In this document: piece by piece, positions 8,548 to 25,038 of the stretch
Numbering within the stretch: the stretch's first letter is position 1
Layout of the letters: the number at the start of each line of letters is the position of its first letter
Origin: Candidatus Marinacidobacterium sp.
GTDB taxonomy: Bacteria > Acidobacteriota > Vicinamibacteria > Marinacidobacterales > Marinacidobacteraceae
DNA: 64,000 nt
Direction of reading: 5' to 3'
Assembly (NCBI GenBank): GCA_965220965.1
Contig: OZ244852.1
Coordinates: forward strand, 640,001-704,000
Translations under genes and position numbers: made by a program
Notes under the pieces: generated by a model
The model's input: the letters and a program-made list of their open reading frames with translations, nothing else
Databases searched by the model: none
Told to the model about the DNA's origin: nothing

Positions 8548-8648
8548 CCGGTTCGGTCCGGCTGGTGAGATGGAGGAGACGAAACCTGATACCGGGAATC
8601 AGGTTCAGAACGTTACCGCGGCTCACGCCCGCACGGGGGGCCGCCGGC

Positions 8649-10409
8649 TCACCCCTGGCTTGCGCGGCGAAGCGCGAAGGCGGATGCGGTGCGCACCGGG
8701 TCTACGCCCGGCTGGAAGATGCGTTCGGACGCCGCTTTCGCCAGGGCGATCCCGCTGGGGCGCCCGAAGTGGCCGGTGAGGGCGGTCTCGGCGCGAATCT
8801 CGACATCGTGTCCGCGCTCTTCCAGCAGGCGCGCCACCTCGGAAGCCGAGGGGGTTCTCTCGTCGAGGCTGAGCGGGCCGGTGTCGGCGTGAAACCCCGG
8901 CCCCTCCGCGGCTTCCGGCAGGGAGACCCCGCGGCCGAGAGCCCGCGCCAGCATGATCGCCACCGCCGAGATGAGCCGGCGGCCCCCCGGAGAGCCGGCG
9001 ACGACCTCGAGCTCGCCGTCCCGGCAGACCAGCGCGGGCGCCGCCGCGTGGAGCGCGCGGCGACCCGGGGCGGGGGAGATCCTGTTCCCCGGCCTCGGGT
9101 CGAACCACATCATCCCGTTGTTCAGGGGATATCCGAGCCCGGGAACCGCGAACGCCGACCCGAACCGACCGCCGAGGGTCGCGGTGAAGGCGACCGCCAT
9201 CCCGTCCTCGTCCGCGACGTTCATGTGGGTGGTGCAGTCCCCCGCCGCGGCGGCCGGCGCGGCAGTGGCGTCGTCCGGGGCGCCGGCCGGCGCGGTCTCG
9301 GCCAGGGTCGGCGCCCGCGGTCCGTCCGCGGTCATCCCCGACCGCCGGGCCGCGAGATACGCGGGCTCGAGCAGCCCCGCGAGCGGGACCGGAACGCTCT
9401 CCGGGTCGCCCAGCCACCGGAAGCGGTCGTCGAACGCGAGCCGCAGCGCCTCCGCCGCGGCGTGCAGGAAGCGCGCGGTCCCGGCCGGCGCGGGATCCGC
9501 CGCCAGCGCCGCGGGGAAAGCGTCCAGGTGCGCGAGCGCCGCCAGCAGCGTCGGGCCGCCGGAGTTCGCCGGGAGCGTGACGACCTCCCGACCGAAGGCG
9601 GTTATCCGGATCGGATCCACCTCGCGGGCCGCCTCGGCGGCGAAGTCCTCGGGGGCGAGCACGCCGCCGGCTTCCCGCACGCCGTCCGCAAGCCGGCGGG
9701 CGAGGTCTCCCCGATAGAACGGCTCCGCGCCGTCCCGCGCGAAGCGACGCAGGCTGGCGGCGAGGTCCGGCAGCCGGAGCCGGTCGCTCTCGCCGGTCGG
9801 GACGAACGGACTCCCGTCGGGGCGGGTGTAGAGCGGGAACGCTCCGGGGGAGCGGCGCAGGCGCCGATAACCGGCGGCGGCGTGGACCGCGAAGACCCAG
9901 TCGGGGACGAAACCCTCGGAGGCCAGCCGTATCGCCGGTTCTACGGTCGTCTCGAAGGGGAGGCGGCCGAACCGGGCGTGGAGCGCGGCGAGCACCGCGG
10001 GAGCGGTCGGGACAAGGGCTGAGAGCGGGCCGGTCTCCGCCCGGTCTCCCTTCGTCGGAGGGAACCCGTAGAGCCCGCCGCCTACGCCGGGCAGGGGCTC
10101 GAACATGTCCTCGCGGGTCGACGCCGGACAGCGCGCGGCGCCCTCGAGCGCGGTGATGCGGGACCCGGCGACATCGCTCCCGGGCGCGCACACCAGGGCG
10201 TAGGCCGTTCCTCCCAGGCCGCTCATCGCGGGCTCCACAACGCCCGAGGCCAGCGCCGTCGCCACCGCGGCGTCCGCGGCGTTTCCGCCGGCGGCCAGGG
10301 TCTCCGCCCCGACCCGCGCTGCGATCCGGGACATCGCGGTGACGGCGCCGGCGTTCCCCCGGACCCGGAAACGTCCCGGCCGGGGAACGGCCTCGCGCAG
10401 GGTCAGCAC
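8649..10409 (-). CDS. Gamma-glutamyltransferase family (Ntn hydrolase)
   Basis: 'GGNAADAAVA', 'VVEP.MSGLGG', autoprocessing Thr in 'CTTHMNVAD', 'FGS..PGLG..LNNGM', 'GSPGG'. Confidence 0.9.
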   Translation of the reverse strand: MLTLREAVPRPGRFRVRGNAGAVTAMSRIAARVGAETLAAGGNAADAAVATALASGVVEPAMSGLGGTAYALVCAPGSDVAGSRITALEGAARCPASTREDMFEPLPGVGGGLYGFPPTKGDRAETGPLSALVPTAPAVLAALHARFGRLPFETTVEPAIRLASEGFVPDWVFAVHAAAGYRRLRRSPGAFPLYTRPDGSPFVPTGESDRLRLPDLAASLRRFARDGAEPFYRGDLARRLADGVREAGGVLAPEDFAAEAAREVDPIRITAFGREVVTLPANSGGPTLLAALAHLDAFPAALAADPAPAGTARFLHAAAEALRLAFDDRFRWLGDPESVPVPLAGLLEPAYLAARRSGMTADGPRAPTLAETAPAGAPDDATAAPAAAAGDCTTHMNVADEDGMAVAFTATLGGRFGSAFAVPGLGYPLNNGMMWFDPRPGNRISPAPGRRALHAAAPALVCRDGELEVVAGSPGGRRLISAVAIMLARALGRGVSLPEAAEGPGFHADTGPLSLDERTPSASEVARLLEERGHDVEIRAETALTGHFGRPSGIALAKAASERIFQPGVDPVRTASAFALRRASQG

Positions 10410-10459
10410 GGAAGCGTCCCGGTCCGGCGTTTCATGCTCGGCGCTTCATGCCCGGCGGT

Positions 10460-11434
10460 TCATGCAAGGACATCCGCGAGCAGCCCCGCTTCGGCGTTCC
10501 CTCCGCACAGCGGCAGCACGAGCCGCCGGTCGGCGAAGCGGTCCCGGTGCTCCAGCGCGGCGGCCACCCCGGCGGCGCCGGCGGGCTCCACGACGAGACC
10601 GAGCGTCCGGTGCAGCAGGCGAACCGCCTCCCGAAGCGAGTCCTCGCGCACCGCGAGGACTTCGTCGACCACCGAGCGCATGACCTCGACCGCCTCCGGG
10701 ACCGGGACCCGCACCGCGATCCCGTCGGCGATCGTCGCGGGCGCATCGGCCGCCGCCGAAGCGTCCCCGGTTTCGAACGCCCGTCGCATGACCGGCGCCG
10801 TCCCGGCGACGACCCCGATCACCCGAACGTCGGGACGGTATGCGCGGCAGTAGAGCCCCATGCCGCCGATCAGGGCGCCGTTCCCGACCGGAGAGACGAG
10901 CAGGTCGCCGGCGTCCGCCTCGAAGCACTCGAGCGCGATCGTTCCCGCGCCCTCGGTGATCTCCGGCTCCCGGCCGTCCTCCACGAACGCGGCGCCGGTC
11001 TCGTCGGCGAAGCCGCGCGCCGCCTCCTTGGCGGCGTCGAAGTCGTCGCCCTCGAGGCGGACCTCGGCCCCCAGCCGGCGCATCGCCGCGACCTTGTCCG
11101 GATTGGCCCGGACCGAAGAGAACACCGTGATCGGGATGGCGGCCCGGCGGGCGGCGAAGGCGAGCCCCTGTCCGAAGTTGCCGGCCGACCCGGTGACCCA
11201 GCCGGCCCGGCCGCCCGAGGCGTCCCGCTTCGCTTCCGCGCCGCGGCGGGCGCCGAACCAGCAAGCGCCCCGGGCCTTGAAGCTCCGGATGGGATTCAGC
11301 GTCTCGACCTTTACGAAGGCCCGGGCGCCGAGCGCTTCGGAGAGGTCCGCCGAGACGAACTGCGGGGTGTCGCGGAACTCCGCGGGAATTGCGCCGTGGG
11401 CCGGCTCGATCCGGTCGGCGCGGGGAGGGTCCAT
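10460..11434 (-). CDS. PLP-dependent threonine/serine dehydratase family
   Basis: 'KVETLNPIRSFKARGA' PLP lysine, 'SAGNFGQG', 'PVGNGALIGG', 'EPAGA', 'CGGN'. Confidence 0.9.
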   Translation of the reverse strand: MDPPRADRIEPAHGAIPAEFRDTPQFVSADLSEALGARAFVKVETLNPIRSFKARGACWFGARRGAEAKRDASGGRAGWVTGSAGNFGQGLAFAARRAAIPITVFSSVRANPDKVAAMRRLGAEVRLEGDDFDAAKEAARGFADETGAAFVEDGREPEITEGAGTIALECFEADAGDLLVSPVGNGALIGGMGLYCRAYRPDVRVIGVVAGTAPVMRRAFETGDASAAADAPATIADGIAVRVPVPEAVEVMRSVVDEVLAVREDSLREAVRLLHRTLGLVVEPAGAAGVAAALEHRDRFADRRLVLPLCGGNAEAGLLADVLA

Positions 11435-11547
11435 GGGCGCCCGGATGGTAGTCGGGCGGCCGCGCCGCCCGGACTGGTCGGCTCCGCATACACTCCGTCG
11501 GGTTCGCGGTGGCCGCCTGGCCGCCGGAGGCCATCAGGAGAACGAGC

Positions 11548-12696
11548 ATGAAGCGAGAGACGACACCGGACGCGCGCGGGGTGACCCGGCGGCAATTCGT
11601 GAAGGCGGGGGCGGCGGGAGCGGCGGCCCTCTCGACCGGGATCGCCCGGCCGGCGCGCGGCGCTCCGGCCGTCCAGAGTTCCGGGCCCCGGCCGGTCGTC
11701 ATTTCGTCCGGCAACGGGAACCGCTACAGGAACGGCGGCGACGAGGTCGTCGTCGAGCGCGCCTTCCGGATGATGACCGAGGGCGAGGACATCCTCGAGA
11801 GCCTGATCGCCGGCGTGAACATCGTCGAGCTCGACCCCGAGGACGCGAGCGTGGGCTACGGCGGCCTTCCGAACGCCGACGGCGTCGTCCAGCTCGACTC
11901 CTGCTGCATGCACGGTCCGCTGCGGCGGGCCGGAGGGGTGGCCGGGCTCGAAGGGGTCCGCACTCCGTCGAACGTGGCCCACCATGTCCTCCAGATCACC
12001 GACCATCACCTGCTGGTGGGGAAGGGCGCCCAGGTCTTCGCCCGCAACATGGGTCTCAAGATCGAGGACGACCTCAACTCCGACCGGTCCCGGGCGATGT
12101 GGCTCGAGTGGAAGCGGCGGATCGACCCGCGGCACTATCTCGACCCGAAGACGCGCGCCGACGCCGGTCACGCGGCGGGGCTCTCGATGGTCCGGGACGG
12201 GCTGATCCCCGAAGAGGACTACTACGGGACGATCAACTGCGACGGCCTCAACGCGAACGGCGACCTCGCGGGCGTCACCACCACCAGCGGGCTGGCGTGG
12301 AAGATCCCGGGACGGGTGGGAGACTCGCCCATCCTCGGCGCCGGCCTGTATGTGGACAACGAAGTCGGCGCGGCCGGCTCGACGGGCCGGGGCGAGGCGA
12401 ACCTCTACGGCCTGTGCTCGTACCTGGTCGTGGAAGAGATGCGCCGCGGAGCGCACCCGAAGGACGCCGCGATGACGGCGCTCGCCCGGGTCAAGGAGAA
12501 CACCGTCGAAAAGCGCCTCCTGAACAGCCGCGGCCTTCCGGCTTTCGGGCTGTCCTTCTACGTCCTGAACAAGGCGGGCGAGTACGCCGGCGTCTCGATG
12601 TACACCACCGAGCGCTCCACCTTCGCGGTCTGCACCGAGAACGGGCCGGAGTCGGTTCCCATGGAGCCGTACCTGGAGGGTTCCGCCTCCGACTGA
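11548..12696 (+). CDS. N(4)-(beta-N-acetylglucosaminyl)-L-asparaginase / isoaspartyl peptidase family, Tat-exported
   Basis: Tat signal 'TRRQFVK'; 'SVGYGGLPN', 'GTI', 'TTTSGLAWKIPGRVGDSPILGAG', 'TGRGE'; AGGAG RBS. Confidence 0.92.
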   Translation: MKRETTPDARGVTRRQFVKAGAAGAAALSTGIARPARGAPAVQSSGPRPVVISSGNGNRYRNGGDEVVVERAFRMMTEGEDILESLIAGVNIVELDPEDASVGYGGLPNADGVVQLDSCCMHGPLRRAGGVAGLEGVRTPSNVAHHVLQITDHHLLVGKGAQVFARNMGLKIEDDLNSDRSRAMWLEWKRRIDPRHYLDPKTRADAGHAAGLSMVRDGLIPEEDYYGTINCDGLNANGDLAGVTTTSGLAWKIPGRVGDSPILGAGLYVDNEVGAAGSTGRGEANLYGLCSYLVVEEMRRGAHPKDAAMTALARVKENTVEKRLLNSRGLPAFGLSFYVLNKAGEYAGVSMYTTERSTFAVCTENGPESVPMEPYLEGSASD

Positions 12697-12697
12697 T

Positions 12698-13069
12698 TTG
12701 GGTCACTCTCGTTTCGGAAAGGGGCGCCGCGGCCGCTTCCCGGCGGTCGGCGCCCTGATCGTCGGGCTGTTCGTCGGCGGCGTTGCGTTCGCGCAGCCCC
12801 CGAAAGCGGAAGAGGAAGAGGAGCCGCTCCCGCCTCCTCCGTCGATCTTCGATCTCTCCTACGAGGTGAGGAACCCGAGGGAACTGGGTCCCAAGGACTT
12901 CCAGAACCGCTGGCGGCGCATCTGGGGAGCGCTCGGGATGCGCGCCCACTACTACCCGTCACAGCTCAGCGGACCGGAGAACTGGCCCCCGCACCTCTAC
13001 GGCGGCGGGATGAACTACAGCATCTGGCGGGACACAGTCACCGGCTGGCATCAGGGCACACCGCCTTGA
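12698..13069 (+). CDS. Hypothetical secreted protein
   Basis: Signal-peptide-like N-terminus (AFA-Q), acidic/Pro linker, Trp/Tyr-rich C-terminus; fills the gap in a co-oriented gene run. TTG start uncertain. Confidence 0.55.
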   Translation: MGHSRFGKGRRGRFPAVGALIVGLFVGGVAFAQPPKAEEEEEPLPPPPSIFDLSYEVRNPRELGPKDFQNRWRRIWGALGMRAHYYPSQLSGPENWPPHLYGGGMNYSIWRDTVTGWHQGTPP

Positions 13070-13117
13070 ACCGCGCGTTGCGCGGAAGGGGCCGCGGCGT
13101 AAGCCATCCCTGACGCC

Positions 13118-14422
13118 TTGCGGGTCCTGAGCTTCACCGCCGGCGCGGGGGAGATGCTCTGCGGGAGCTGCATCCGCGACAACACCCTCGCCCGCGAGCT
13201 GGGACGCCGCGGGCACGAGGTCCGGCTCGCGCCGCTCTACCAGCGCAGCCGGACGGACGAGGAGAGCGTCTCCGACCCGTCGGTGCGCTTCGGCGGCGTC
13301 TCGGTGTTCCTGCAGCACGCCGCCCCCCTGTTCGGGCGGCTGGGCTTCGTGAACGCGTTCCTCGATTCGGGCCCGGTCGTGCGCCTCGCCGGGCGCTTCT
13401 CCGGTTCGACCGAGGCGAGTCGCCTCGGCCCGCTGACCGTGACCACGCTGCTGGCGGAGCGCGGGCCGGCGCGACGCGCCGTCGAGTCGCTCATGGCCTC
13501 GCTGTCCGGAGAGCGGTTCGATCTCGTCATGCTGCCGAACTCGTTGCTCCTCGGACTGGTCGCGCCCCTCAGGGCGGCCCTCGGCGCCCCGGTGATCGTC
13601 ACCTTCTCGGGCGAGGATCTCTTCCTCTCGCAGCTTCCCGAGGAGGACCGGAACGCGGCGCTCGACCTCATGCGGGAGGCGGCCCGCGAGGTGGACCTCT
13701 TCGTGGGCGTCACCGCTCACCACGCGAAGGACATGGCGCGCCGCCTCGGGGCGCCCGAGTCCCGGGTTGCGGTGGTCCGCCTGGGGGTCGACCCGGCCGG
13801 CTTCCCCGACGCGCCGAAGCCGGCCCCGGCGGATCCGCCCGACGAGGTCACGATCGCGTATCTCTCCCGCATCGCCCCCGAGAAGGGCCTCGACCGGTTG
13901 GCGGACGCCGTCGCCTCGGTCAGCCGGGCCGGGGGGCCGCGGCTCCGCGTCCGCGCCGCCGGGTGGATGGCGCGGAGCCAGCGCGGCTACCTGGCCGGCG
14001 TGCGCGCCCGTTTCGCGTCCGAGGCGCCGGGCGTCCGGTTCGACTACGAGGGGAGCCCGGACCGCGAGGGGAAGCTGCGGCTGCTGCGCGAGGCGGATGT
14101 GTTCGCGTTGCCCGCTGTCTTCCCCGAGCCCAAGGGCATTCCCCCGATCGAGGCGATGATGGCGGGAACCCCGGTCGTGCTGCCCGCGACCGGGGCCTAC
14201 CCGGACCTGATCCGCCGCACCGGCGGCGGCGTCCTGGCCCGCAGCGCCGATCCCGGGGACTTCGCGGCGGCGCTCGGGGACCTGCTGCGGGATCCGGAGG
14301 AACGCTCCCGCCTCGGCGCGGAAGGATTCCGGCGGGTGCGCGAGGAGCACTCCGCCCACCGCATGGCGGAAGACATGGAGGCCGCCTGGCGCGAGGCCGT
14401 CCGCATCCGCCGCGCCGCCTGA
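13118..14422 (+). CDS. Glycosyltransferase family 4 (GT-B)
   Basis: 'YLSRIAPEKG', 'EPKGIPPIEAMMAGTPVV' nucleotide-sugar motif; N-terminal 'AGAGEMLCGSCIRD'. Confidence 0.9.
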   Translation: MRVLSFTAGAGEMLCGSCIRDNTLARELGRRGHEVRLAPLYQRSRTDEESVSDPSVRFGGVSVFLQHAAPLFGRLGFVNAFLDSGPVVRLAGRFSGSTEASRLGPLTVTTLLAERGPARRAVESLMASLSGERFDLVMLPNSLLLGLVAPLRAALGAPVIVTFSGEDLFLSQLPEEDRNAALDLMREAAREVDLFVGVTAHHAKDMARRLGAPESRVAVVRLGVDPAGFPDAPKPAPADPPDEVTIAYLSRIAPEKGLDRLADAVASVSRAGGPRLRVRAAGWMARSQRGYLAGVRARFASEAPGVRFDYEGSPDREGKLRLLREADVFALPAVFPEPKGIPPIEAMMAGTPVVLPATGAYPDLIRRTGGGVLARSADPGDFAAALGDLLRDPEERSRLGAEGFRRVREEHSAHRMAEDMEAAWREAVRIRRAA

Positions 14423-14434
14423 CAACCTGATTTC

Positions 14435-15541
14435 ATGACCGATCCGCACGAATCCCGTCCTCATCCCGACGCGGTCGCATCCGCCCGCGCCGGGCTCGAC
14501 AGCCACGTCCGCGACATCGTCCGCTGGCACTTCTCGGAAGACACCGGCTGCTCCTTCTGGCTCGACTTTCGCGAGCGGCTGGACTTCGATCCGCTCACCG
14601 ACATCCGGGGTTTCGACGACCTCCGGCGCTTTCCTCCCTTCGAGGACGACTGGCTCCGGGGCGGGCCGGTCCGGCGGTGGGTCCCGAAGCCCTGGCAGGA
14701 CCGGCCCCTCTTCGTCTTCGAGACCGGGGGGACGACCGGCATTCCCAAGAGCCGCGTCGGCATCACCGACTTTCGCGAGGACTACGAGCTGTTCAGCGAG
14801 CTGCTTCCCGACGAGCACTTTCCCCGCGGCTCGAACTGGCTCATGCTCGGTCCCACCGGACCGCGCCGTCTTCGGCTCTCGGTCGAACACCTCGCCCAGC
14901 ACCGCGGCGGGATCGCGTTCTGCCTGGACCTCGACCCCCGCTGGGTCATCAAGCTGATCCGGAAGAACTGGCTGGAGCATCTCCAGGAGTACCAGCGCCA
15001 CTGCATCGACCAGGCGCTCACGATCCTCTCGGCGGGCCATGACATCCAGTGCCTGTTCACGACGCCCAAGCTGCTCGAGGCGCTCTGCCTGGCGCTCGAG
15101 GACCGCGGAAGCAGCCTCCGGGAGACGGGGATCCGCGGCATCTTTTCCGGGGGCACGGAGTTCACCCCCCAGTGGACGCGGTTCGCGGTCGAGGAACTGC
15201 TCGACGGGGTCTACCTCCAGCCCACCTACGGCAACACGCTCATGGGCCTCGCGCCCGCCCGTCCCCCGACGCCGGCCGACGGCTACACGATCGCCTATTA
15301 CCCGCCGATGCCACGGGCCGTGCTCGAGGTGGTCGACCCCGACAGCGGCGAGCTGGTGGACTACGGCGGGACCGGGCGCGTGCGCCTCACGACCCTGACC
15401 CGCGAGTTCTTCGTTCCCGGCTTTCTCGAGCGCGACGAGGGCGAACGCGAACGACCCTGGGGGCCCTACGCCTGGGACGGCGTCAGCGGGGTGCGCCCGT
15501 TCGGCCAGCTCCCCGGCGGCACGACCGTCGGGGTCTACTGA
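14435..15541 (+). CDS. EhpF/GriC-like truncated ANL-superfamily adenylating enzyme
   Basis: 'WHFSEDTGCSFWL...FDP', P-loop 'ETGGTTGIPK', 'DLDPRWV', 'TTPKLL', 'GGTE', 'YGNT', 'ERD', C-terminal 'GVY': the motif order I recall for EhpF; 368 aa, lacking the small C-terminal ANL domain. Confidence 0.78.
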   Translation: MTDPHESRPHPDAVASARAGLDSHVRDIVRWHFSEDTGCSFWLDFRERLDFDPLTDIRGFDDLRRFPPFEDDWLRGGPVRRWVPKPWQDRPLFVFETGGTTGIPKSRVGITDFREDYELFSELLPDEHFPRGSNWLMLGPTGPRRLRLSVEHLAQHRGGIAFCLDLDPRWVIKLIRKNWLEHLQEYQRHCIDQALTILSAGHDIQCLFTTPKLLEALCLALEDRGSSLRETGIRGIFSGGTEFTPQWTRFAVEELLDGVYLQPTYGNTLMGLAPARPPTPADGYTIAYYPPMPRAVLEVVDPDSGELVDYGGTGRVRLTTLTREFFVPGFLERDEGERERPWGPYAWDGVSGVRPFGQLPGGTTVGVY

Positions 15542-15562
15542 GCCTCGGCGGCCCGCCCCGGA

Positions 15563-15605
15563 AGTCCTCCCGCACCCCGGTTCGGGACCCCGGTTCGGGA
15601 GGACT
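15563..15605. terminator. Hairpin between convergent genes (possible bidirectional terminator) enclosing a 13-bp tandem duplication
   Basis: AGTCCTCCCG (15563-72) / CGGGAGGACT (15596-605) inverted repeat; ACCCCGGTTCGGG x2 at 15574-15599; no U-tract. Confidence 0.4.
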
Positions 15606-15614
15606 CGGCCGGCC

Positions 15615-17666
15615 TCAGTTGGTTTCGGACGCCGTGGTGCGGTAGCGCTCGAACCAGGCGAGGATGTTGGCGATCTTGCCGATGAGCTGGCTCGGCCGCC
15701 GGCTCATGTCGTGCGAAGCCCCCGGAAGCCGGACCACGCCGGTGTCGATCCGCCGCATCTTGAGCGCGTGGAAGAGCTGGTACGACTCGGACAGGGGTGT
15801 CCTCAGGTCCGCCGACCCGGTCACGATCAGGGTGGGCGTCGTGATGTTCTCCGCCAGCGAGAGCGGCGAGAACTTCCAGTAGGGGGCCGGGTCCTCCCAT
15901 GGGAGGCCCTCGTAGCGGCTGTGGAAGTAGCCGTACCAGTTGTCGGCGGTGAGCGTCTTGCTGATCCAGTTGACCACCGGCTTCTGGGAGACCGCGGCGC
16001 GGAACCGGTCCGTCTTGCCGACGATCCAGGCGGTCAGGATGCCGCCCGCGCTCCCGCCGGTCACGAAGAGGTTGTCCGGGTCGATGTAGCCGCGGGCGAT
16101 CACCGCGTCCACCCCCGAGATGACGTCGTCGTAGTCCTCGCCCGGGTAGTTGTGGTAGAGCAGATCCCCGAACTCCTCGCCGTAGCTGGTGCTGCCCCGG
16201 GGGTTCGGGTAGAGGACCACGTATCCGGCGGCCGCCATCAGCTGCATCTCCGCCGAGAAGCGGTCCCCGTAGTTCGAGATCGGCCCGCCGTGGATTTCGA
16301 GGATGAGCGGGTAGCGACGGGCGGGATCGAAGTCGGGCGGCTTCACGATCCATCCGTGGATCGGGTGGCCGTCGAACGATGAATCCCACCAGATCTCCTC
16401 GACTTCGCCGAGCGTTCGCCCGGAGAGGAGGTCCTCGTTGAGCGCGGTGATCCTCCGGACCTCTCCCCCGGGTCGCCCGAGCGCGACCTCGCCGGGCTGA
16501 TCGGGGCGGGTCTGGTTCATCGCGAACGAGCCGTCGTTCGCGACCGAGAACGATCCGCCCCCGTAGGGCCGGCCGTAGGAGGCGCCTCCGAGGTCGCCCG
16601 CGAGGACGCTGGTCTCCCCGTCGAGGGTGACGAACCCGACCTTCGAGTTGCCGAGGTCGTCGTACTGGAAGTAGACGCCGCTCCCGTCGCGCGCCCACAC
16701 CGGGGCCGACACGCTCCGGTCGAGGCCCGCCGTCAGCACCCGCCGCCCGCTGCCGTCGAGGTTCATCACCTCGAGGCGGCGCACCTGGTAGGTGCGCACG
16801 CGGTCCTCGTTGCTGATGAAGGCCACGCTCTGTCCGTCAGGGGAGACGGCCGGGCTCTGGTCCGGTCCGTTGCGATCGGTCAGCGCGCGGATCTCCCCGC
16901 CGGCCGCCGGCGCGATGTAGAGCTCGGAGTTGCGGTAGTCGTAGACCCAGTCGGGCTTGCGGTTCGAGGAGAACACCAGGTTCTGGCTGTCCGGCGTCCA
17001 GGCGGCCGGGCTGGCGTGATGGAAGTCCCCGGAAGTCACCTGGACCGGGGTGCCCCCTTCGGCCGACACCACGAAGAGGTGCTGGAACCCGAAATCCAGG
17101 TAACCGACGCCGTCCTGCCGGTTCCGGAAACGGTCCTCGAGGATCGGCGGGTCGGCCCACTCGGCGCCCGGCGGCGGCCTCGGCGGCGCCGTCAGGCTCG
17201 GCGCCGGATGGGGAACGAGCATGTTGAACGCGATGTGGCGCCCGTCGGGCGACCAGCGGATCGCGCGCGGGGACTCGAGGAGCTGGGTGAGCGTGGTGGT
17301 GTCTCCGGTGTCCATCCAGCGCAGTTGAATCTGGCCGTCAGCGATGTAGGCCAGCCGGTCGCCGCCCGGGGACCAGCGGGGGGTCGTTCCGGCGCCGAGG
17401 CGGCGGTGGTCCCCTCCGTCGGCGTTCACGACCCACAGTTCGCGCCGCTGCCGGTCGCGCTGGATGTCCATCGACGTGCGGACATAGACCACGCGTTCGC
17501 CGTCGGGAGAGATCTGCGGGTCGGCCGCGAATTCGAGCTGGAACACGTCCATCGGCTCGAAATGGCCCGAGGCCTGGCCGGCCGTCTCGGCCGGATGCAA
17601 CAGCAGGGTCAGCGCCGCCGCGAGCATCCCGGCGGAGAAGGGCGACAGGCGAGAGAACGTAGACAT
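15615..17666 (-). CDS. S9 family (acylaminoacyl/dipeptidyl-type) peptidase, secreted
   Basis: Signal peptide, PD40-like 'WSPDG' repeats, 'IHGGP', 'NPRGS.SYG', 'GGSAGG', 'D.R.P', 'ASH'; AGGAG RBS before ATG 17666. Confidence 0.92.
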   Translation of the reverse strand: MSTFSRLSPFSAGMLAAALTLLLHPAETAGQASGHFEPMDVFQLEFAADPQISPDGERVVYVRTSMDIQRDRQRRELWVVNADGGDHRRLGAGTTPRWSPGGDRLAYIADGQIQLRWMDTGDTTTLTQLLESPRAIRWSPDGRHIAFNMLVPHPAPSLTAPPRPPPGAEWADPPILEDRFRNRQDGVGYLDFGFQHLFVVSAEGGTPVQVTSGDFHHASPAAWTPDSQNLVFSSNRKPDWVYDYRNSELYIAPAAGGEIRALTDRNGPDQSPAVSPDGQSVAFISNEDRVRTYQVRRLEVMNLDGSGRRVLTAGLDRSVSAPVWARDGSGVYFQYDDLGNSKVGFVTLDGETSVLAGDLGGASYGRPYGGGSFSVANDGSFAMNQTRPDQPGEVALGRPGGEVRRITALNEDLLSGRTLGEVEEIWWDSSFDGHPIHGWIVKPPDFDPARRYPLILEIHGGPISNYGDRFSAEMQLMAAAGYVVLYPNPRGSTSYGEEFGDLLYHNYPGEDYDDVISGVDAVIARGYIDPDNLFVTGGSAGGILTAWIVGKTDRFRAAVSQKPVVNWISKTLTADNWYGYFHSRYEGLPWEDPAPYWKFSPLSLAENITTPTLIVTGSADLRTPLSESYQLFHALKMRRIDTGVVRLPGASHDMSRRPSQLIGKIANILAWFERYRTTASETN

Positions 17667-17803
17667 CGGATGACTCCTGGGCGGGCGGGTCGGGACGGGC
17701 GAGTCCCGAAGCGGCGTTTCCGGTTCGCAGATCATGACCGAACCGGGTCAGGGAGATCCCGGCCGCACCCGGAACCGCCGGCGCTCGGTACACTGGCGCC
17801 ACC

Positions 17804-19225
17804 GTGATTCGCGTTCCCGTCCTTCGCTGGGGCCAGCCCTACCAGAGCCTCGAAACCAACACCGTCAGTCACTTCCTGAGCGGTGAAGCGGTCGCTGAAG
17901 TCGACCAGGCGCCCGGGGGGATCGTCCGCCGCGACCTGCGGAAGGCGGGTCGGGCGCGCCAGATCCTCCGCGAGATCCCGAGCCGGGAGATCCTCGGGAT
18001 GATGAAGGAGGCGGCCCGCCTCTACCAGGAGGAGGAGCTCCCTCTGGGCGATGGCCGGCAGTCCCCCTCGGACTTCGTGCGGGCGCAGTCGGCGACGACC
18101 GGCCTGCCCGAGTCCATGTGCCGGGCCAACATGGAGAAGAACCGGTTCGTCCTCGAGCGGATGGACCAGGTCCTCGACTCGCTGACGCGCGGGCTCGACC
18201 TCGACATCCTCGCCAGCGGCCACGGGGTCGAGGACCGGGGCGTGCCGGTGTCCTACCAGGCGCAGACCCCGGTCCTCGGCTGCGTCCTGCCGTCCAACTC
18301 TCCGGGAGTCCACACGCTCTGGCTGCCGGTCATCCCGATGCGGATCGGGCTGGTGCTGAAGCCCGGCCCGGAGGAGCCCTGGACGCCCTACCGGATGGCG
18401 GAGGCGTTCTTCGCCGCCGGCGTTCCCCGCGAGGCCATCGCGGTCTATCCGGGAGGCGCCGATGTGGGCGCCGCCGTCGTCGAGGCCGCCCCAAAGAGCC
18501 TCATCTTCGGAAGCCGCGCCACCGTGGAGCGCTACCGCTCGAATCCCGGCGTCCGGGTGCATGGCCCCGGCTTCTCCAAGATCCTGCTGGGCGACGATGT
18601 TGTGGACGAATGGGAGAAGCACCTCGACCTGCTGGTGGACAGCGTCTTCCAGAACAGCGGCCGTAGCTGCATTTCCTGTTCGGGGATCTGGGCTTCACGC
18701 CACACCGAGGAGATCGCCGAGGCGCTCGCCGAGCGGCTGGGGCCGGTGGCCCCGCGGCCTCCCGAGGACCCGGAGAGCGCGCTCGCGGCGTTCACCGTGC
18801 CCGGCGTGGCCGACGCCATCAATCAGGACATCGACGACCGGGTCGCGGCCGGCGGCGCCGAGGAGGTGACGGCGCCGCTCCGGGGCGGCCCGCGGCTCGT
18901 CAAGGAGGGGAACGCGGCGTGGCTGCGTCCCACCGTCGTCCACTGCGACGGCCCGGAGCGGCAGGCGGCGAACGTGGAATACATGTTCCCCTTCGCCTCG
19001 GTGGTCCGTTGCCCGCAGGAGAAGATGCTCGACCACATCGGGGACACCCTGGTGGCCACCGCGATCACCGGGGACAGCGGTTTTCGCGAGGCGCTCCTCG
19101 AGTCCCCGTCGGTCGACCGCCTGAATCTCGGACCCATCCCCACGAACCGCATCAACTGGCTGCAGCCGCACGAGGGAAACATCCTCGATGTCCTCTACCG
19201 CGCCCGCGCCTTCCAGAGCGCCTGA
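17804..19225 (+). CDS. Aldehyde dehydrogenase-fold protein, EhpG/GriD-like acyl-adenylate reductase candidate
   Basis: 'LPSNSPG', 'LKPG..EP', catalytic Cys in 'NSGRSCISCS', 'EYMFPF'; canonical 'LELGG' replaced by 'VHGPGFSK'. Confidence 0.8.
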   Translation: MIRVPVLRWGQPYQSLETNTVSHFLSGEAVAEVDQAPGGIVRRDLRKAGRARQILREIPSREILGMMKEAARLYQEEELPLGDGRQSPSDFVRAQSATTGLPESMCRANMEKNRFVLERMDQVLDSLTRGLDLDILASGHGVEDRGVPVSYQAQTPVLGCVLPSNSPGVHTLWLPVIPMRIGLVLKPGPEEPWTPYRMAEAFFAAGVPREAIAVYPGGADVGAAVVEAAPKSLIFGSRATVERYRSNPGVRVHGPGFSKILLGDDVVDEWEKHLDLLVDSVFQNSGRSCISCSGIWASRHTEEIAEALAERLGPVAPRPPEDPESALAAFTVPGVADAINQDIDDRVAAGGAEEVTAPLRGGPRLVKEGNAAWLRPTVVHCDGPERQAANVEYMFPFASVVRCPQEKMLDHIGDTLVATAITGDSGFREALLESPSVDRLNLGPIPTNRINWLQPHEGNILDVLYRARAFQSA

Positions 19226-19937
19226 GGGCGCCGCGCTGCGGGAGGCCGGCGAGACGGCTTCGGCGAGCGAGGGCCTGATCGTTCGCGGGCTCGTCAAGGA
19301 CTACGCCGGGCCCGGAGGCCTGCTGCGGGTGCTCGACGGCGTCGACCTCGAGGCCGGTCCCGGGGAGGCGCTCTCGATCATGGGAGCGTCGGGCTGCGGC
19401 AAGAGCACGCTCCTCTTCCTGCTGGGGGCGATCGAGTCGCCCTCCGACGGGGAGGTGCGTCTCGCCGGGGTGGACCCTCACGAACTGGATCCTGACGAGC
19501 AGGCCCGGTTCCGGCGCGACGAGGTGGGGTTCGTGTTCCAGGACCACTGCCTCCTTCCCCAGTGCACCGCGCTCGAGAACGTGCTCACCCCGACTCTTCC
19601 CGACCCGCGGCCCGGCGACCGGGACCGCGCGGTGGAGCTCCTCGACCGGGTGGGGCTGTCGGCGCGCCGCGACCATCTGCCGGCGGAGCTCTCCGGGGGC
19701 GAGAAACAGCGGGTCGCGATCGCGCGCGCGCTCGTGCGGCGACCGGGCCTCCTGCTGTGCGACGAGCCCACCGGGAACCTCGACGGGGAGGCGGCGGCCC
19801 GCGTCGCCGAACTGCTGGTGGATCGCGGCGCGGTGGGCGCGGGATGCATCGTGGTTCTGGTGACCCATGATCCGGGCCTGGGCGCCCGCTTCGACCGGGG
19901 TTACCGCATGGAGCGCGGCCGGCTCAAAGCCGCCTGA
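19188..19937 (+). CDS. ABC transporter ATP-binding protein (LolD/MacB type)
   Basis: Walker A 'GASGCGKS', 'GFVFQ', signature 'LSGGEKQR', Walker B 'LLCDEPTGNLD', 'VTHD'. Confidence 0.95.
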   Translation: MSSTAPAPSRAPEGAALREAGETASASEGLIVRGLVKDYAGPGGLLRVLDGVDLEAGPGEALSIMGASGCGKSTLLFLLGAIESPSDGEVRLAGVDPHELDPDEQARFRRDEVGFVFQDHCLLPQCTALENVLTPTLPDPRPGDRDRAVELLDRVGLSARRDHLPAELSGGEKQRVAIARALVRRPGLLLCDEPTGNLDGEAAARVAELLVDRGAVGAGCIVVLVTHDPGLGARFDRGYRMERGRLKAA

Positions 19938-19949
19938 GGGACGGCGCGG

Positions 19950-22900
19950 ATGGCCCGGGGTTCCGCAGACGTCGTCCGGCCGGCCCTGCGGGGTCTGATC
20001 CACTACCGGCGCGGGCACCTCCTCGTCGCCGCCGCCACCGCGGTTGCGGCGGCAGTTCTCGTCGGAGCGCTCGCGGTGGGCGATTCGGTCCGGGGCAGCC
20101 TCCGCGCCGTCTTCACCGAGCGGCTGGGAGAGGCCGACTTCGCGGTCCTCCCGCGCCATCCGTTCTCCGACGATCCGGCGACCGGGCTCGCGGCGCGGTT
20201 GGCGTCGCAACTCGAGCGGGAAGCTCCCGGATGGTTCGAGTCGCCGGCGCCGGCGCTGCGGCTCATGGGCGCGGTGTTTCTCCCGGACGGAGCTCCGGAG
20301 GCCGTCACCGTGTTCGGCGTCGACGACCGATATTTCGCGCTTCACCGGGTTCCGGGGCCGGTCTCGCCGGGCGCCGTCCGGGTGAGCCCCGGGCTGGCGC
20401 TTCAGGGCATCGAGCCCGGCGACTCGCTGCTGATCCGGGTGGACGGCGTCTCCGGGATCGCCTCGGCGTCGTTCTTCGGAGACAAGGGCGCCTCCGCGCT
20501 CACGTTCCGCCGCACGGTGGAGGCCTGGGCCGAGCCCCGTCCCGGCCCCGCCTCGGGCGGGTTCTCGCTGTTCCCGGTCCAGGGACCGGTGCGAGCCGTC
20601 TTTCTGCCGCTCGGCGAGCTTCGCGCGCTCCTCGACGAGGACTTCGGGGGGCCGCCCCGGGCCAACGCGCTCCTATTCCGGGCCGCCGGCGCGGCTGGCG
20701 CCGGGGACGAGGGAGAGGCGGTGCTGGCCGCCGCCCTCGATGCGACCGCCTCGCTGGACGACCGCGGGCTCGGACTGCGCCGGGGCGAGTCCGGCGACCT
20801 GGTGCTGGAGAGCCGGAGCCTCGCGCTCGCCGACCACGAGGTGGACGGGGCGGTCCGCGCCGCCGAGGCCCGGGGACTTCGGGCAGCGCCGGTGCTTACC
20901 TGGCTCGCGACCTCGATGGCGGCGAACGGACGCGAGACTCCGTATTCGCTGGTGGCCGGGCTTCCCGAGGGCTGGTTCCCTCCGGACGACGACCCCGGCG
21001 ATGTTCTGCTCCCCGGGCCCTGGCTCACCGAGGATCTCGACCTAACCGGGGGCGACGCGATCGAGGTGTCCTACCTTGTTTGGGACGAGGCGGGACGGTT
21101 CGAGGCCGCCGCCGCCTCGCTGCCGGTGGGGCCGGGGGTCGCCCTCGACGGGGTGTTCCGCGATACCACCCTGGCCCCGGAGTTGCCCGGCGTCACCGAC
21201 TCGGCGCGGATGGGCGACTGGGACCCGCCGTTTCCGCTGGACCTGAGCCGGATCCGGGACCGGGACGAAGAGTACTGGGACGACTTCGGCGCGCTTCCGA
21301 AGGCGTTCGTGCCCTACGCCACCGCGCGGCGCCTCTGGGAGATGCGACAGGGGAGCGCAACATCTGTCAGGTTCCGGAGCGAGGGGAGCGCGTCTCTGGA
21401 TCCCCTCCCGCTCGAAGAATCGCTCGTGGCGGAGCTTCCCGCCGCCGACTTCGGGCTCGCTCCGGTCGCGGTGCGGGCGCAGGGGCTCGAGGCCTCCCGG
21501 GGCGCGACCGACTTCGGGATCTATTTCCTCTACTTCTCGTGGTTCCTGCTGGTCTCGGCGTTCGTTCTCATCGCCCTGCTGTTCCGGCTGGGGATCGAGC
21601 GGCGGCTGCGGGAGATCGGCCTCCTGCTCGCCTGCGGCTGGCCGCCGAAGCGGGTCTCGCGGACGCTCCTCCTCGAGTCCCTGATCGTCGCCACTGTCGG
21701 CGTCGTGGTGGGTTCGGCGCTCGGCCTTCTCTATGCCCGGGGCATGGTGGGGCTTCTCTCCGGCGTGTGGGGGGGCGCGGTGACCGGGACGCTCGCCGCC
21801 TCCGACGGAGGGGCGGAGGCGCCGCTTCAGCTCTTCGTGAGCTGGGGTTCGGTCACCATGGGGGCGCTGGGCGCGCTCGAGATGGCCCTGATCGCCGCCT
21901 GGTGGACCACCCGGCGGCTCGTAAGACTCCCCCCGCGACCCCTCCTCGCCGGGAGCCTGCCGACCAGCGACGCGGCCGGCCCGCTCCCGGCGCCCGATCC
22001 CGGACGCCGCGCGCGTCGGCTGGCCGTCGGTCTCGCGGTCGTCGGCGTCGGCCTCGCGGGGGCGGCCGCGGCCGGGATCGTTCCGGAGACGGGCGGTTTC
22101 TTCGGAGCGGGGTCGGCGCTGCTCGCGGCCGGGCTCGCCGCCGGCTGGCGGCGCCTGGTGGCCGCCGGGGCCGGAGGCGCGCTCGCCGGGTTGCGGGAAC
22201 TCGCTTTCCGGGCGGCCGGTTTCCGCCCGGGCCGAAGTCTCGCCGCCATGGCGCTGGTGGCCTTCGCGGCCTTCACCCTGGTCGCGGTGGAGTCGTTCCG
22301 CAAGCAGTCGGGCGCCGGTGGTCTGCCCGAAGGCGTCGGCGGGGTCCTTGCGCTCACCGAGACGGTGCTGGGGGCGCCGTGGGACCCGACGACCGCCGAG
22401 GGGCAGGAGGCGCTCAACCTGCCGGCCGGCCTCGAAGGGTTCCGGGTGAGCCCGCTTCGTCTCGCCGGCCACGAGGACGCCAGTTGTCTCAATCTCTACC
22501 GCCCGGCGCGGCCGCGGGTGCTGGGCGTCCCCCCGACGCTGCGCGAGGAGAACCGGTTCCCGTTCGCGGCGCACATGGGCGAGACCGCGGCGGAGACCGC
22601 GAATCCCTGGCGCCTCCTCGAGCGCGCGCGGGCGCCCTCGGACCCCATCCCGGTGATCGGCGACCAGAACTCGATGACGTACGTCCTCAAGTGGCCGGTC
22701 GGCGAGGAGCGTTCCTACCCCATCGGGGACGGGGGCGCTCCGGTCCGGTTGCGGCTGGTGGCGACGCTTTGGGACAGCCTCTTCCAGGGGGAGCTGCTGA
22801 TGGCGGAGGAGGATCTGCTGGACTCGCTGCCGGTCGAGGACGGCTACCGCATGTTCCTGGTGGACCGGCCCGGCGAGGTCCCGGTCGGCGCCGAGGCGCT

Positions 22901-23393
22901 CGCTGCGGCGGAGTCCGCAGCCACGGCGCTCCTCGCCGATGCGCTCTCGGACTACGGAGCGGCCTCCACCGCCGCCCGCGCCCGGCTCGAGAGCTTCCAC
23001 CAGGTGGAGAACACTTACCTCTCCACCTTCCAGGCGCTCGGCGGCCTCGGGCTCCTGCTCGGAACGCTGGGGCTCGGCGCGGTGCTCCTGCGGAACGCCG
23101 ACGAGCGGAAGAAGGAGTGGGCGCTGCTCGCGGCGGCGGGCTACCGGCGGCGCGACTTCGCTTCGCTCGGTTTCTGGGAGAACGCGCTCCTCCTCCTCGC
23201 CGGCGTCGGGGTCGGCGCCGGCGCGGCCATCGTCTCGGTCCTCCCGGTGCTCGGCCAGCGGGGCGCCGGCGGGAGTCTCGGGCTCCTCGCCGTTCTCCTC
23301 TCCGGGATCGTGGCGTTCGGCCTGCTCACCGGCGCGCTCGCCGCCCGCCGCGCCGCCACCCGACCCATCCTCCCGGCGCTCCGCGCCGAGTGA
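19950..23393 (+). CDS. Large FtsX-like ABC permease (duplicated MacB/FtsX domains)
   Basis: 1147 aa; two periplasmic domains plus TM clusters; 'RLREIGLLLACG' and 'ERKKEWALLAAAG' FtsX motifs; C-terminal 'ALRAE'. Confidence 0.9.
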   Translation: MARGSADVVRPALRGLIHYRRGHLLVAAATAVAAAVLVGALAVGDSVRGSLRAVFTERLGEADFAVLPRHPFSDDPATGLAARLASQLEREAPGWFESPAPALRLMGAVFLPDGAPEAVTVFGVDDRYFALHRVPGPVSPGAVRVSPGLALQGIEPGDSLLIRVDGVSGIASASFFGDKGASALTFRRTVEAWAEPRPGPASGGFSLFPVQGPVRAVFLPLGELRALLDEDFGGPPRANALLFRAAGAAGAGDEGEAVLAAALDATASLDDRGLGLRRGESGDLVLESRSLALADHEVDGAVRAAEARGLRAAPVLTWLATSMAANGRETPYSLVAGLPEGWFPPDDDPGDVLLPGPWLTEDLDLTGGDAIEVSYLVWDEAGRFEAAAASLPVGPGVALDGVFRDTTLAPELPGVTDSARMGDWDPPFPLDLSRIRDRDEEYWDDFGALPKAFVPYATARRLWEMRQGSATSVRFRSEGSASLDPLPLEESLVAELPAADFGLAPVAVRAQGLEASRGATDFGIYFLYFSWFLLVSAFVLIALLFRLGIERRLREIGLLLACGWPPKRVSRTLLLESLIVATVGVVVGSALGLLYARGMVGLLSGVWGGAVTGTLAASDGGAEAPLQLFVSWGSVTMGALGALEMALIAAWWTTRRLVRLPPRPLLAGSLPTSDAAGPLPAPDPGRRARRLAVGLAVVGVGLAGAAAAGIVPETGGFFGAGSALLAAGLAAGWRRLVAAGAGGALAGLRELAFRAAGFRPGRSLAAMALVAFAAFTLVAVESFRKQSGAGGLPEGVGGVLALTETVLGAPWDPTTAEGQEALNLPAGLEGFRVSPLRLAGHEDASCLNLYRPARPRVLGVPPTLREENRFPFAAHMGETAAETANPWRLLERARAPSDPIPVIGDQNSMTYVLKWPVGEERSYPIGDGGAPVRLRLVATLWDSLFQGELLMAEEDLLDSLPVEDGYRMFLVDRPGEVPVGAEALAAAESAATALLADALSDYGAASTAARARLESFHQVENTYLSTFQALGGLGLLLGTLGLGAVLLRNADERKKEWALLAAAGYRRRDFASLGFWENALLLLAGVGVGAGAAIVSVLPVLGQRGAGGSLGLLAVLLSGIVAFGLLTGALAARRAATRPILPALRAE

Positions 23394-23432: not shown

Positions 23433-24698
23433 ATGGCATATCCCGCGCCGTCCCGCAGCCGGTCCGAAGTGGACCGCGCGGGCGAGGTTCTGGCCGGGCC
23501 CAGGGACGAGGGGTGCGCTGCGGCGCGTCAGGTGGCCAGCGACTGGCGGGCCGCGCACGCCTACCCGCTGCTCGCGCTCCGGAAGCTTCTGGCGCGGAGG
23601 GCGCGCGAGGCCGACCCCGACGGCGACAGCCTGGTGGCGCTGCGACGTAACGGCCTGTTGGCGAAGTCCCGTGCAGCGCCGAGAGCGGTGAGGCGCCCGT
23701 CCGACAAGGCGCGTGAGCGAGGAATATCGGGAATATTCCGAGCGAAACGGAACGATGAGCGCCCCGAAGGGGCGCGGTTCGGGCGGGATGCATCGCCGCT
23801 CGAACGCCGCGTGACTTTGTCAATAGGCCGTTGAGCGACTGGTCTCGGTGGAGGCCAAGCTCCGGCGGTTCTCCGGGATGCGGCTCTCCCGGATGCAGGA
23901 CCTCGGCGGCTGCCGCGCCATCCTCTCCGATGTGGGGAGCGTGGACCGGCTGGTCCGGATCTACGCGGACCGGCGGCAGAGCCACGATCTGGTCAGGAGC
24001 GACGACTACATCGCGGAACCCAAGGCCGATGGATACCGGGGCGTCCACCTGGTCTACCGCTACCGCTCGCGGAGCGACGCCGGCGCCGTCTGGAACGGCC
24101 TGCGGATCGAGGTGCAGATGCGCTCGAGGCTCCAGCACGCCTGGGCCGCCGCGGTCGAGACCGTGGATGCGATCCGGGGTACGCGGCTCAAACGGGGGGG
24201 CCGGGCAACGGCCGCTGGGACCGGTTCTTCGCGCTCATGGGCAGCGTCCTGGCGATCCGGGAGAGGAGGCCAGCGGTTCCGGGAACGCCCACCGCCCTCG
24301 CGGAACTCCGGGACGAGGCGACGACGCTCGAACGGGAGCTGGGGGTCATGTCCACGCTGCTGACGCTGGGCGTGGCGGTTCACCGCGTGGATCGGGTTGC
24401 TGGACTCATCAGGGACTTTCGCCGGGTGGCCGCCTGGTACCTGCTGACAGTCGATTCCCGGACCGCCACGACCTCGGTCCGCGGCTATGGCGCGACGGCG
24501 TTCGAGGACGCGCGCGCCGAGTACCTTCGCCGCGAGGAACAGCATCGGGACAGCCCCGGGATTCAGGTCTGCCTGGTCTCCACGACCTCCGCCGAGGCGC
24601 TGCGAAGGGCCTATCCCAACTACCATCTCAATTCGCAGGACTTCCTGGGCGCGGTCGCCGAGCTGTACGAGCGGGGATCCCGGAGGGTTGGCCCGTGA
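23433..24698 (+). pseudogene. RelA/SpoT (alarmone-synthetase-like nucleotidyltransferase) domain gene disrupted by a MITE and a frameshift
   Basis: Three fragments: 'SRSEVDRAG..WRAAHAYPL' | 'KLRR..LSRMQDLGGCRAI..DYI..PK.DGYRGVHLV..IEVQMRSRLQHAWA.AVE' | 'W.RFFALM..AYPNY'. Deleting 23650-23833 and adding one G at 24194-24200 gives one continuous ORF. Confidence 0.85.
23650..23831. mobile_element. 182-bp non-autonomous MITE-like insertion
   Basis: Imperfect terminal inverted repeats ACGGCCTGTTGGCGAAGTC / GACTTTGTCAATAGGCCGT (16/19); flanked by TA and TG (degenerate TA duplication); internal hairpins; sits inside the conserved RxK motif. Confidence 0.8.
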
Positions 24699-24756
24699 AC
24701 ATCGCCCGCGGTCCCGTCGTTTCGTCGGGCGTACCAGGCATGCCGGAGGCGCGACC

Positions 24757-25038
24757 GTGAAGAGCAGGACTACGTACGAGCTGGACGCCAGGTCTGTCCG
24801 CGTGCTGAAGCGGCTCGCGCGCCGCTGGGGCGTTTCGGAGTCGGAGGCGCTTGGCCGGGCGATCCGCAGCGAGGGCTGCCGGCAGATGCGGAACGAGGAC
24901 GCCATTGCCGCACTTCAGGAGCTGCAGGCCTCGCTCCGGAGGAAGGGGGTCGACGTCGCCCGGTGGGAGCGCGAGGCGCGCGAGGAGCGGCGCGCCTCTT
25001 GGGGCCCCGGCCGAGCGTCGCCGGGGCCTCCTACGTAA
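24757..25038 (+). CDS. Ribbon-helix-helix (CopG/VapB-like) protein, antitoxin-like
   Basis: GGAGG RBS, GTG start; 'RTTYELD...LKRLARRWGVSESEAL.RAI' RHH pattern. Confidence 0.7.
   Translation: MKSRTTYELDARSVRVLKRLARRWGVSESEALGRAIRSEGCRQMRNEDAIAALQELQASLRRKGVDVARWEREAREERRASWGPGRASPGPPT

Follow-up and report, generated by a model that had tools for sequence, protein, structure and literature searches.

The closest described relatives of the genes reported here belong to two clusters for specialised metabolites. In the D-alanylgriseoluteic acid (AGA) cluster of Pantoea agglomerans, EhpF (PDB 3HGU, 3L2K) is a truncated adenylating enzyme of the ANL superfamily that ends in GVY, and EhpG is its partner with an aldehyde dehydrogenase (ALDH) fold that lacks the general-base Glu. 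According to the available part of the published account, EhpF to EhpO convert PDC (phenazine-1,6-dicarboxylate) to AGA (PMC3175449). In the grixazone cluster of Streptomyces griseus, the accessible text of the source has GriC and GriD taking an acid through the acyl-AMP to the aldehyde (PMC10179220). We analysed a stretch of 64 kb from Candidatus Marinacidobacterium sp. (positions 640,001 to 704,000 of contig OZ244852.1), referred to as the window, in which an EhpF/EhpG-type pair lies with a family 4 glycosyltransferase (GT4), an ATP-binding cassette (ABC) ATPase and an FtsX permease. The system to which these five genes belong is real, widespread and uncharacterised. The five genes are probably the late half of a widespread pathway from an aromatic acid to a sugar-linked product that is moved across the inner membrane. 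Our reading, to which we assign a probability of roughly 0.45, is that the pathway builds a glycosylated aromatic compound delivered to periplasmic propeller proteins resembling those that bind pyrroloquinoline quinone (PQQ), as a shared ligand, cofactor or modification.

The ORF coordinates of the window bear out the five co-oriented genes and the opposite-strand peptidase listed in a preliminary description of this DNA. On the forward strand we find the GT4 gene (13118-14422; Pfam PF00534/PF13439), the short EhpF-type adenylating enzyme, hereafter ANL (14435-15541; weak AMP-binding match, E 7e-8), the EhpG-type reductase with the ALDH fold (17804-19225; weak Aldedh match, E 4e-18), a LolD/MacB-type ABC ATPase (19188-19937; ABC_tran, LolD-like by Pfam/NCBIfam) and a fused two-half FtsX/MacB-type (type VII) permease (19950-23393; two Pfam FtsX domains). 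Gaps of 12 nt separate GT4 from ANL and the ATPase from the permease, and the ATPase ORF, counted from its first ATG, overlaps the ALDH gene by 38 nt. The source genome, G000, has 3.25 Mb in 2 contigs, is 94% complete and carries single copies of GT4, ANL, ALDH and FtsX. The reverse strand encodes an S9 prolyl-oligopeptidase-family peptidase (15615-17735; Pfam Peptidase_S9), which splits the run, so the five genes presumably cannot form one transcript here; what stands of the proposed five-gene run is its order, which recurs in relatives. The peptidase was rejected as a member of the system and is regarded as a lineage-specific insertion: it lies near ANL in 1 of 80 compared loci (the best 80 of 342 related loci, many of them cut by contig ends), and as a query it gave 20 tblastn matches in its own genome.

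Against PDB sequences, the 368-aa ANL protein matched EhpF best and over its full length (E 1.6e-42; next match 1.5e-3), and a Foldseek search with its predicted structure (pLDDT 83) also put EhpF on top (E 1.9e-28, against 8e-15 for PaaK-type enzymes). A profile of 21 relatives aligns through the last residue of EhpF, terminal GVY included, and the EhpF motif order given in the preliminary description agrees with the PDB sequence. Pfam found no AMP-binding_C in the protein, which has no C-terminal subdomain. An ordinary PaaK-type CoA ligase was rejected on this missing domain and on the preference for EhpF by sequence and fold; the full operons encode a genuine PaaK-like ligase in a gene of its own, and this ligase forms the outgroup in the ANL tree. 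The window's ANL sits in a clade of its own apart from EhpF (support 83/94), and because this clade has GPRRLRL where EhpF (GPHIVG) and three other groups have GPHI(V/I)G, its substrate probably differs from that of EhpF.

The partner protein has an ALDH fold by sequence family and by comparison of predicted structures. The EhpF homologue in the Pantoea ehp cluster is followed by an ALDH to which the partner protein shows 25% identity (pairwise E 1e-30). These two ALDHs share GPG.SK, the catalytic Cys and a C-terminal PH.G, and the general-base Glu is gone in both; in the alignment the window's protein has an invariant Cys289 and HGPG at the position of the Glu. Hydrolysing ALDHs have this general base, and its loss marks acylating or reducing ALDHs. 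The pair very probably acts in the reductive direction. LuxE and LuxC gave no Pfam match at E 0.01 and do not appear among the Foldseek matches listed for the two proteins. The EhpF-like and EhpG-like assignments made earlier were upheld; within the EhpF/EhpG-type reductases the pair represents a new clade, and its setting is new as well. Identities to EhpF and EhpG are about 32% and 25%, the phz genes are missing, and the partners are GT4, an iron-dependent alcohol dehydrogenase (Fe-ADH), a type VII exporter and propellers. The likeness to GriC/GriD lies in the two-protein logic from acid to aldehyde and was drawn from the published reaction scheme.

The homology to EhpF/EhpG, together with the automated PaaK-like names of ANL relatives, could also mean a plain tailoring pair for phenazines (as EhpF/EhpG) or for 3-amino-4-hydroxybenzoic acid (3,4-AHBA; as GriC/GriD), or else an ordinary PaaK ligase. 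tblastn with Pantoea proteins recovered no match to PhzA/B, PhzD or PhzG in G000, and PhzE and PhzF queries gave merely 26-27% matches. The Pfam search of this genome for PhzA/B was empty, as was its positive control; GriH (dehydroquinate synthase II, DHQS-II, PF01959) was not found in G000, the control being found in 3 of 14, and GriI was not searched. No phenoxazinone synthase was noticed in any locus that we read. The earlier remark that phenazine and GriH genes are missing from the window thus extends to the genome, and with the separate clade and the absent C-terminal domain this explanation is largely refuted and in our view hardly credible.

Other EhpF-like proteins were met on the way. 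Plasmid proteins annotated as 'arylcarboxylate reductase' match the window's ANL at 33-38%; on a Streptomyces plasmid (L177, 8938-18050) such a homologue precedes a type I polyketide synthase gene, with no ALDH partner in that stretch. A second EhpF-like clade (32-38%) occurs beside a class III aminotransferase in L098, L166 and L167, in genomes without the GT4-FtsX system; the neighbours there include what we take to be a large U32-like protein and an MMPL-like protein.

The GT4 is a universal core gene of the system and has an EX7E motif and an N-terminal CxxC (C15, C18) that is invariant in relatives; a metagenome scan with GT4 alone returned 2 close loci and 6 unrelated GT4s. In related loci the ATPase gene directly precedes the permease gene. 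The permease has 8 predicted transmembrane segments, two periplasmic domains, an invariant periplasmic Cys846 (SCLNL) and a DWDPPFP motif. Its type VII (MacB/FtsX) class agrees with the domain content of the family, with FtsX in 30 of 30 members and MacB_PCD in 13 of 30.

The closest related loci come from metagenome-assembled genomes of Acidobacteriota. The order GT4-ANL-ALDH-ABC-FtsX occurs in 13 of the 80 loci, and ALDH lies at most 10 kb from ANL in 73. We surveyed one set of 141 Acidobacteriota genomes, each at least 90% complete, and 111 Planctomycetota genomes (genome quality not reported), and found an ANL orthologue in 36 and 21, respectively, after setting aside G025 (33%) and 11 Planctomycetota matches (32-38%) as a different EhpF-like clade. 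ALDH was found in exactly the same 36 Acidobacteriota, GT4 in these and G086 (37/141), and FtsX in these, G086 and G094 (38/141). Radical SAM (32/141), halogenase (31/141, E<1e-100) and symporter genes (28/141, counting G016, G049 and G132, whose matches cover half of the query) all fall within the 36; four halogenase matches outside them (E 1e-62 to 1e-78) and 3 weak ABC matches (66 bits or less) among 17 were set aside. The unpublished genome G023 enters solely through the denominator of 141 and as a weak match outside the set. In Planctomycetota, 20 of the 21 ANL carriers also have FtsX. ANL is single-copy, 58-70% identical across Acidobacteriota, and its 36 carriers span 19 families, with a patchy distribution inside the class of G000. 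The ANL, ALDH, GT4 and FtsX genes often stand on unlinked loci in Acidobacteriota carriers, yet they are retained together. The five genes belong to one inherited system, and the synteny that had been looked for exists, the co-inheritance holding even where linkage is lost.

A similar survey was made with one PQQ-like propeller of G000 as query (cut-off E<1e-20). It matched 38 of the 141 Acidobacteriota, exactly the FtsX set, and the other 103 have neither; this coincidence supports delivery of the product to the propellers. Carriers had from 1 to 14 or more matches, a lower bound as about 13 candidates were scored. For the 111 Planctomycetota, FtsX was found in 30, the propeller in 30, both in 29, one alone in 2 and neither in 80. 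G000 has about a dozen propellers, which are scattered and form subfamilies with distinct conserved motifs; PQQ_A, PQQ_B, the Fe-ADH and PQQ_C lie away from the five-gene locus, at C1:1161561-1167669. Wherever a start was called for propellers A, B and C, the protein opens with a segment resembling a signal peptide, and PQQ_C has an invariant periplasmic Cys. Modelling of PQQ_C in complex with both periplasmic domains of FtsX scored 0.00 in a run whose controls were not folded.

Single-copy maturation and uptake genes that track a scattered multi-copy family are the pattern of cofactor systems. PQQ and mycofactocin are such systems, with many client enzymes and salvage variants, and the present one resembles them in the co-distribution of its single-copy genes with multi-copy scattered clients. 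It differs from them in that no precursor peptide or pqq genes were seen; pqqC was not found in G000, in a search whose control gave no match either. That the propellers are the users of the product is a tentative assignment, which we put a little below even odds.

The five window genes make up about one third of a system of some 17 genes. Operon maps were drawn for 40 regions from the Acidobacteriota genomes and 20 from Planctomycetota; they are approximate, since some genes went uncalled or were called too short (the GT4 of the window was among those lost), and in part of the maps GT4 and ABC ATPase had merged into one cluster and were told apart by length and sequence. Complete operons of about 17 genes (L158, L161, L163) start with propellers A and B, DUF3311, an SSS symporter, ANL, ALDH, Fe-ADH and propeller C, continue with a HemN-like radical SAM protein, a 190-aa protein, a flavoenzyme, GT4 and a 4HBT thioesterase, and end with a small membrane protein, the PaaK-like ligase, ABC and FtsX. 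Many Acidobacteriota operons also have a TonB receptor. The activating, reducing, glycosylating and exporting unit of the preliminary description kept its co-inherited genes and its EhpF/EhpG-type pair, and proved incomplete. In L006 (6088-11074) and about 27 similar loci of the Thermoanaerobaculia type, the space between divergent ALDH and ANL genes is occupied by a Rieske protein and a PQQ dehydrogenase of full length, possibly a client, possibly an insertion.

One clue to the acid is the likeness of the 190-aa protein to chorismate lyases (PDB 2NWI, E 6e-4); the protein has no Pfam match, and its Atlas clusters carry PF04345/PF01947 on 11-19% of members. We treat a chorismate lyase function as a lead. 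Its gene adjoins that of the flavoenzyme in L158, L160, L161 and L163. The flavoenzyme is most like PltA-type halogenases; it retains the conserved Lys and WxWxIP, which we take to be halogenase motifs. From the chorismate-lyase-like, CoA-ligase, halogenase, radical SAM and thioesterase genes we infer a modified 4-hydroxybenzoate, and a substrate of the hydroxybenzoate type is the somewhat favoured assignment.

The halogenase brings in another explanation, a secreted specialised metabolite in the form of a halogenated aryl glycoside, which is the framing of the preliminary description and of a preprint on sponge 'Halo_AMP' clusters. The available text of that preprint describes a halogenase with an AMP-binding enzyme and frequent PQQ-like domains, GT, thioesterase (TE), radical SAM and TonB, treats the products as small halogenated peptidic compounds, tentatively barettins, and nowhere uses the terms 'FtsX', 'glycosyltransferase' or 'aldehyde dehydrogenase' (bioRxiv 10.64898/2026.08.03.742642). 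The core of its group CC A as given there (A, flavin-dependent halogenase or FDH, radical SAM or rSAM, P450) matches locus L194 of a close relative, by gene content only: AMP-binding, halogenase, radical SAM and P450 genes lie in a row at 7898-13330, and its FDH and rSAM are orthologous to those of the system (53% and 56% identical). A flavin halogenase beside an AMP-binding enzyme, which defines Halo_AMP clusters, is found in relatives of G000 and not in G000, which is without a halogenase. Moreover, all characterised relatives of the pair belong to antibiotic or pigment clusters, most carriers have the halogenase, and Planctomycetales strain 10988 makes 3,5-dibromo-p-anisic acid, assigned in the accessible part of the source to the adjacent chorismate lyase and halogenase of its baaA/baaB locus (bioRxiv 10.1101/723874). 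The four loci with adjoining genes are likened to baaA/baaB by the gene pair only; the accessible text compares BaaB with Bmp5, whereas the flavoenzyme of the system is PltA-like. A secreted metabolite does not account well for a single-copy system with an ANL conserved phylum-wide and retained jointly when split over loci, for its strict tie to periplasmic propellers, or for the late half kept by G000 after the halogenase was lost. We consider it improbable, and of the secreted glycoside and the envelope modification that the preliminary description offered, the free glycoside is the weaker option.

The importers within the operon have also to be weighed as part of an inward, catabolic or detoxifying route, in which an aromatic unit freed by periplasmic propellers would enter through the TonB receptor and the symporter, and alcohol, aldehyde and acid would be interconverted before CoA activation. 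Fe-ADH, ALDH and ligase are able to run oxidatively, and multi-copy secreted propellers could be hydrolases. The chorismate-lyase-like, halogenase and radical SAM genes are, however, of biosynthetic types, the ALDH lacks the Glu on which hydrolytic oxidation depends, and we noticed nothing for ring cleavage among the genes of the loci read, so that this direction seems to us quite unlikely.

In G000, the SSS symporter is located at C1:1745128 and the small membrane protein of the operon at C1:573866, and a genome search gave no orthologues of the radical SAM, halogenase, lyase-like, PaaK-like and thioesterase genes. The radical SAM and halogenase genes are present in all 4 closest relatives, which suggested an assembly gap. 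This was excluded by the junction itself: the flanks are joined over 90 bp in mid-contig, at a place where two relatives hold 2.9 and 5.4 kb with both genes. The loss is real, a clean deletion. Because the early biosynthetic genes were not found while the symporter is kept, the G000 lineage looks set to import the acid and would represent a salvage version. A TAXI-TRAP transporter lies beside the propeller array (C1:1179193-1181992), and one follows the biosynthetic block in relatives without the symporter (L183, 12875-15726); it is a possible alternative importer.

Ten FtsX-positive Planctomycetota and G086 have no ANL orthologue, and GT4 was present in 4 of 5 searched. Most of the ANL-less loci that we read hold GT4, ABC, FtsX and propeller C beside NuoEF, a NuoG/GltD-like protein, a ferredoxin with a twin-arginine (TAT) signal and a membrane polyferredoxin, and several add polyprenyl-synthase, prenyltransferase, squalene-cyclase-like and another radical SAM gene. 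As these loci keep GT4, ABC, FtsX and propeller C, we regard these four as the core and the reductase pair as one of two feeder modules. The ANL-less operon of L172 and L173 comprises propellers, an NHL protein, TAT ferredoxin, membrane polyferredoxin, NuoEF, a NuoG/GltD-like protein and GT4, and further a radical SAM protein, terpenoid-type genes, ABC and FtsX. By gene type, the redox genes of these variants would favour a cofactor and fit a redox role, and the terpenoid genes would favour a lipid.

The lipid could be a glycolipid or glycoconjugate of the cell envelope, aryl- or terpenoid-linked, that FtsX/ABC takes out of the inner membrane in the way LolCDE extracts lipoproteins, with the propellers as carriers or assembly factors. 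Such a role would suit a type VII permease with a LolD-like ATPase, the polyprenyl synthase (which occurs with DUF116), prenyltransferase and squalene-cyclase-like genes placed by the same GT4/ABC/FtsX/PQQ_C core, and the presence of BamB among the closest solved propellers. It leaves unexplained why a dozen or more divergent propeller paralogues lie scattered and have distinct conserved motifs, and likewise the TonB receptor and symporter of many operons, and the NuoEF/ferredoxin chain. We judge it unlikely, though less so than the secreted metabolite or the inward route.

Returning to a glycosylated aromatic for the propellers, its chemistry is inferred from the gene identities, operon anatomy, co-distribution and deletion established above. 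In complete operons the UbiC-like enzyme would form 4-hydroxybenzoate from chorismate, the PaaK-like ligase would turn it into the CoA thioester, the PltA-type flavoenzyme and the radical SAM enzyme would halogenate and modify it, and the 4HBT thioesterase would release the acid. Alternatively the acid would be taken up by the SSS symporter, and G000 would salvage imported acid. The EhpF-like enzyme would then adenylate the acid to acyl-AMP; because it has no C-terminal domain, the acyl group is expected to move to Cys289 of the EhpG-like enzyme, which would reduce it with NAD(P)H to the aldehyde. Fe-ADH would give the benzyl alcohol, GT4 would attach a sugar to it, and the ABC/FtsX type VII unit would move or extract the product to the periplasm and the propellers.

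Several observations weigh against this reading. The match counts exaggerate the association, since related genomes are no independent cases. The Arg-rich GPRRLRL suggests a substrate more anionic than plain hydroxybenzoate, and the assignment of the 190-aa protein as a chorismate lyase is weak. The PaaK-like gene was unmatched in the 4 closest relatives of G000, as was the lyase-like gene in a search that had no positive control, and the loss of the halogenase shows that halogenation by the G000 cell is not required. The propellers may need no cofactor, because the best PDB sequence matches are tetrathionate hydrolase and then BamB, neither of them known as a quinoprotein. Lastly, terpenoid-type enzymes in the ANL-less variants are hard to square with one small aromatic cofactor.

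A more specific version would have the product as an undescribed glycosylated, halogenated aromatic redox cofactor for the expanded family of 'empty' PQQ-like propellers of Acidobacteriota and Planctomycetota, and the system as the route by which it is made, salvaged and brought to them in the periplasm. Permease and PQQ_C would use their invariant cysteines in loading it, and ANL-less genomes would use a prenyl-type version recharged by the NuoEF-ferredoxin chain. Taken jointly, these proposals are speculative and more doubtful than the general reading.

Some further features of the window surround the five genes. Between the converging stops of ANL and the peptidase, at ~15564-15605, lies an inverted repeat of 9 bp that contains a direct repeat, a possible bidirectional terminator; a promoter and terminator scan gave 0 and 4 sites, the same level as shuffled sequences, and did not flag this repeat. 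Just upstream of GT4, 12698-13069 (forward strand) encodes a 123-aa protein that has a single hydrophobic segment and matches no Pfam family, found upstream of GT4 in 7 of the 80 loci with inverted orientation in some. It is preceded by an Asparaginase_2 protein with a TAT signal (11509-12696, forward), syntenic in 16 of the 80 loci, which served as a control neighbour and was rejected as a member of the system: 57 of the 141 genomes carry an asparaginase, just 23 of them within the set of 36. At 23831-24760 (forward) the ORFs 23848-24363 and 24237-24698 overlap in different frames, perhaps as one RelA/SpoT-domain gene broken by a frameshift.

In the literature covered, which left out most subscription journals, we found no account of a link between the reductase pair, GT4, FtsX and the propellers, and none of the steps is characterised in the papers found. 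Roughly one in four of the Acidobacteriota and Planctomycetota genomes sampled carries the system, which ties the known but rare chemistry of EhpF/EhpG and GriC/GriD to what appears to be a conserved part of envelope physiology and not an antibiotic cluster. The system provides an alternative reading for some of the Halo_AMP clusters proposed for barettins, and its single-copy genes offer a direct handle on the many PQQ-like propeller paralogues of both phyla. Were the product a cofactor, it would itself be new and would serve numerous enzymes in abundant bacteria of soils, the sea and sponges, and the system would be categorically new.

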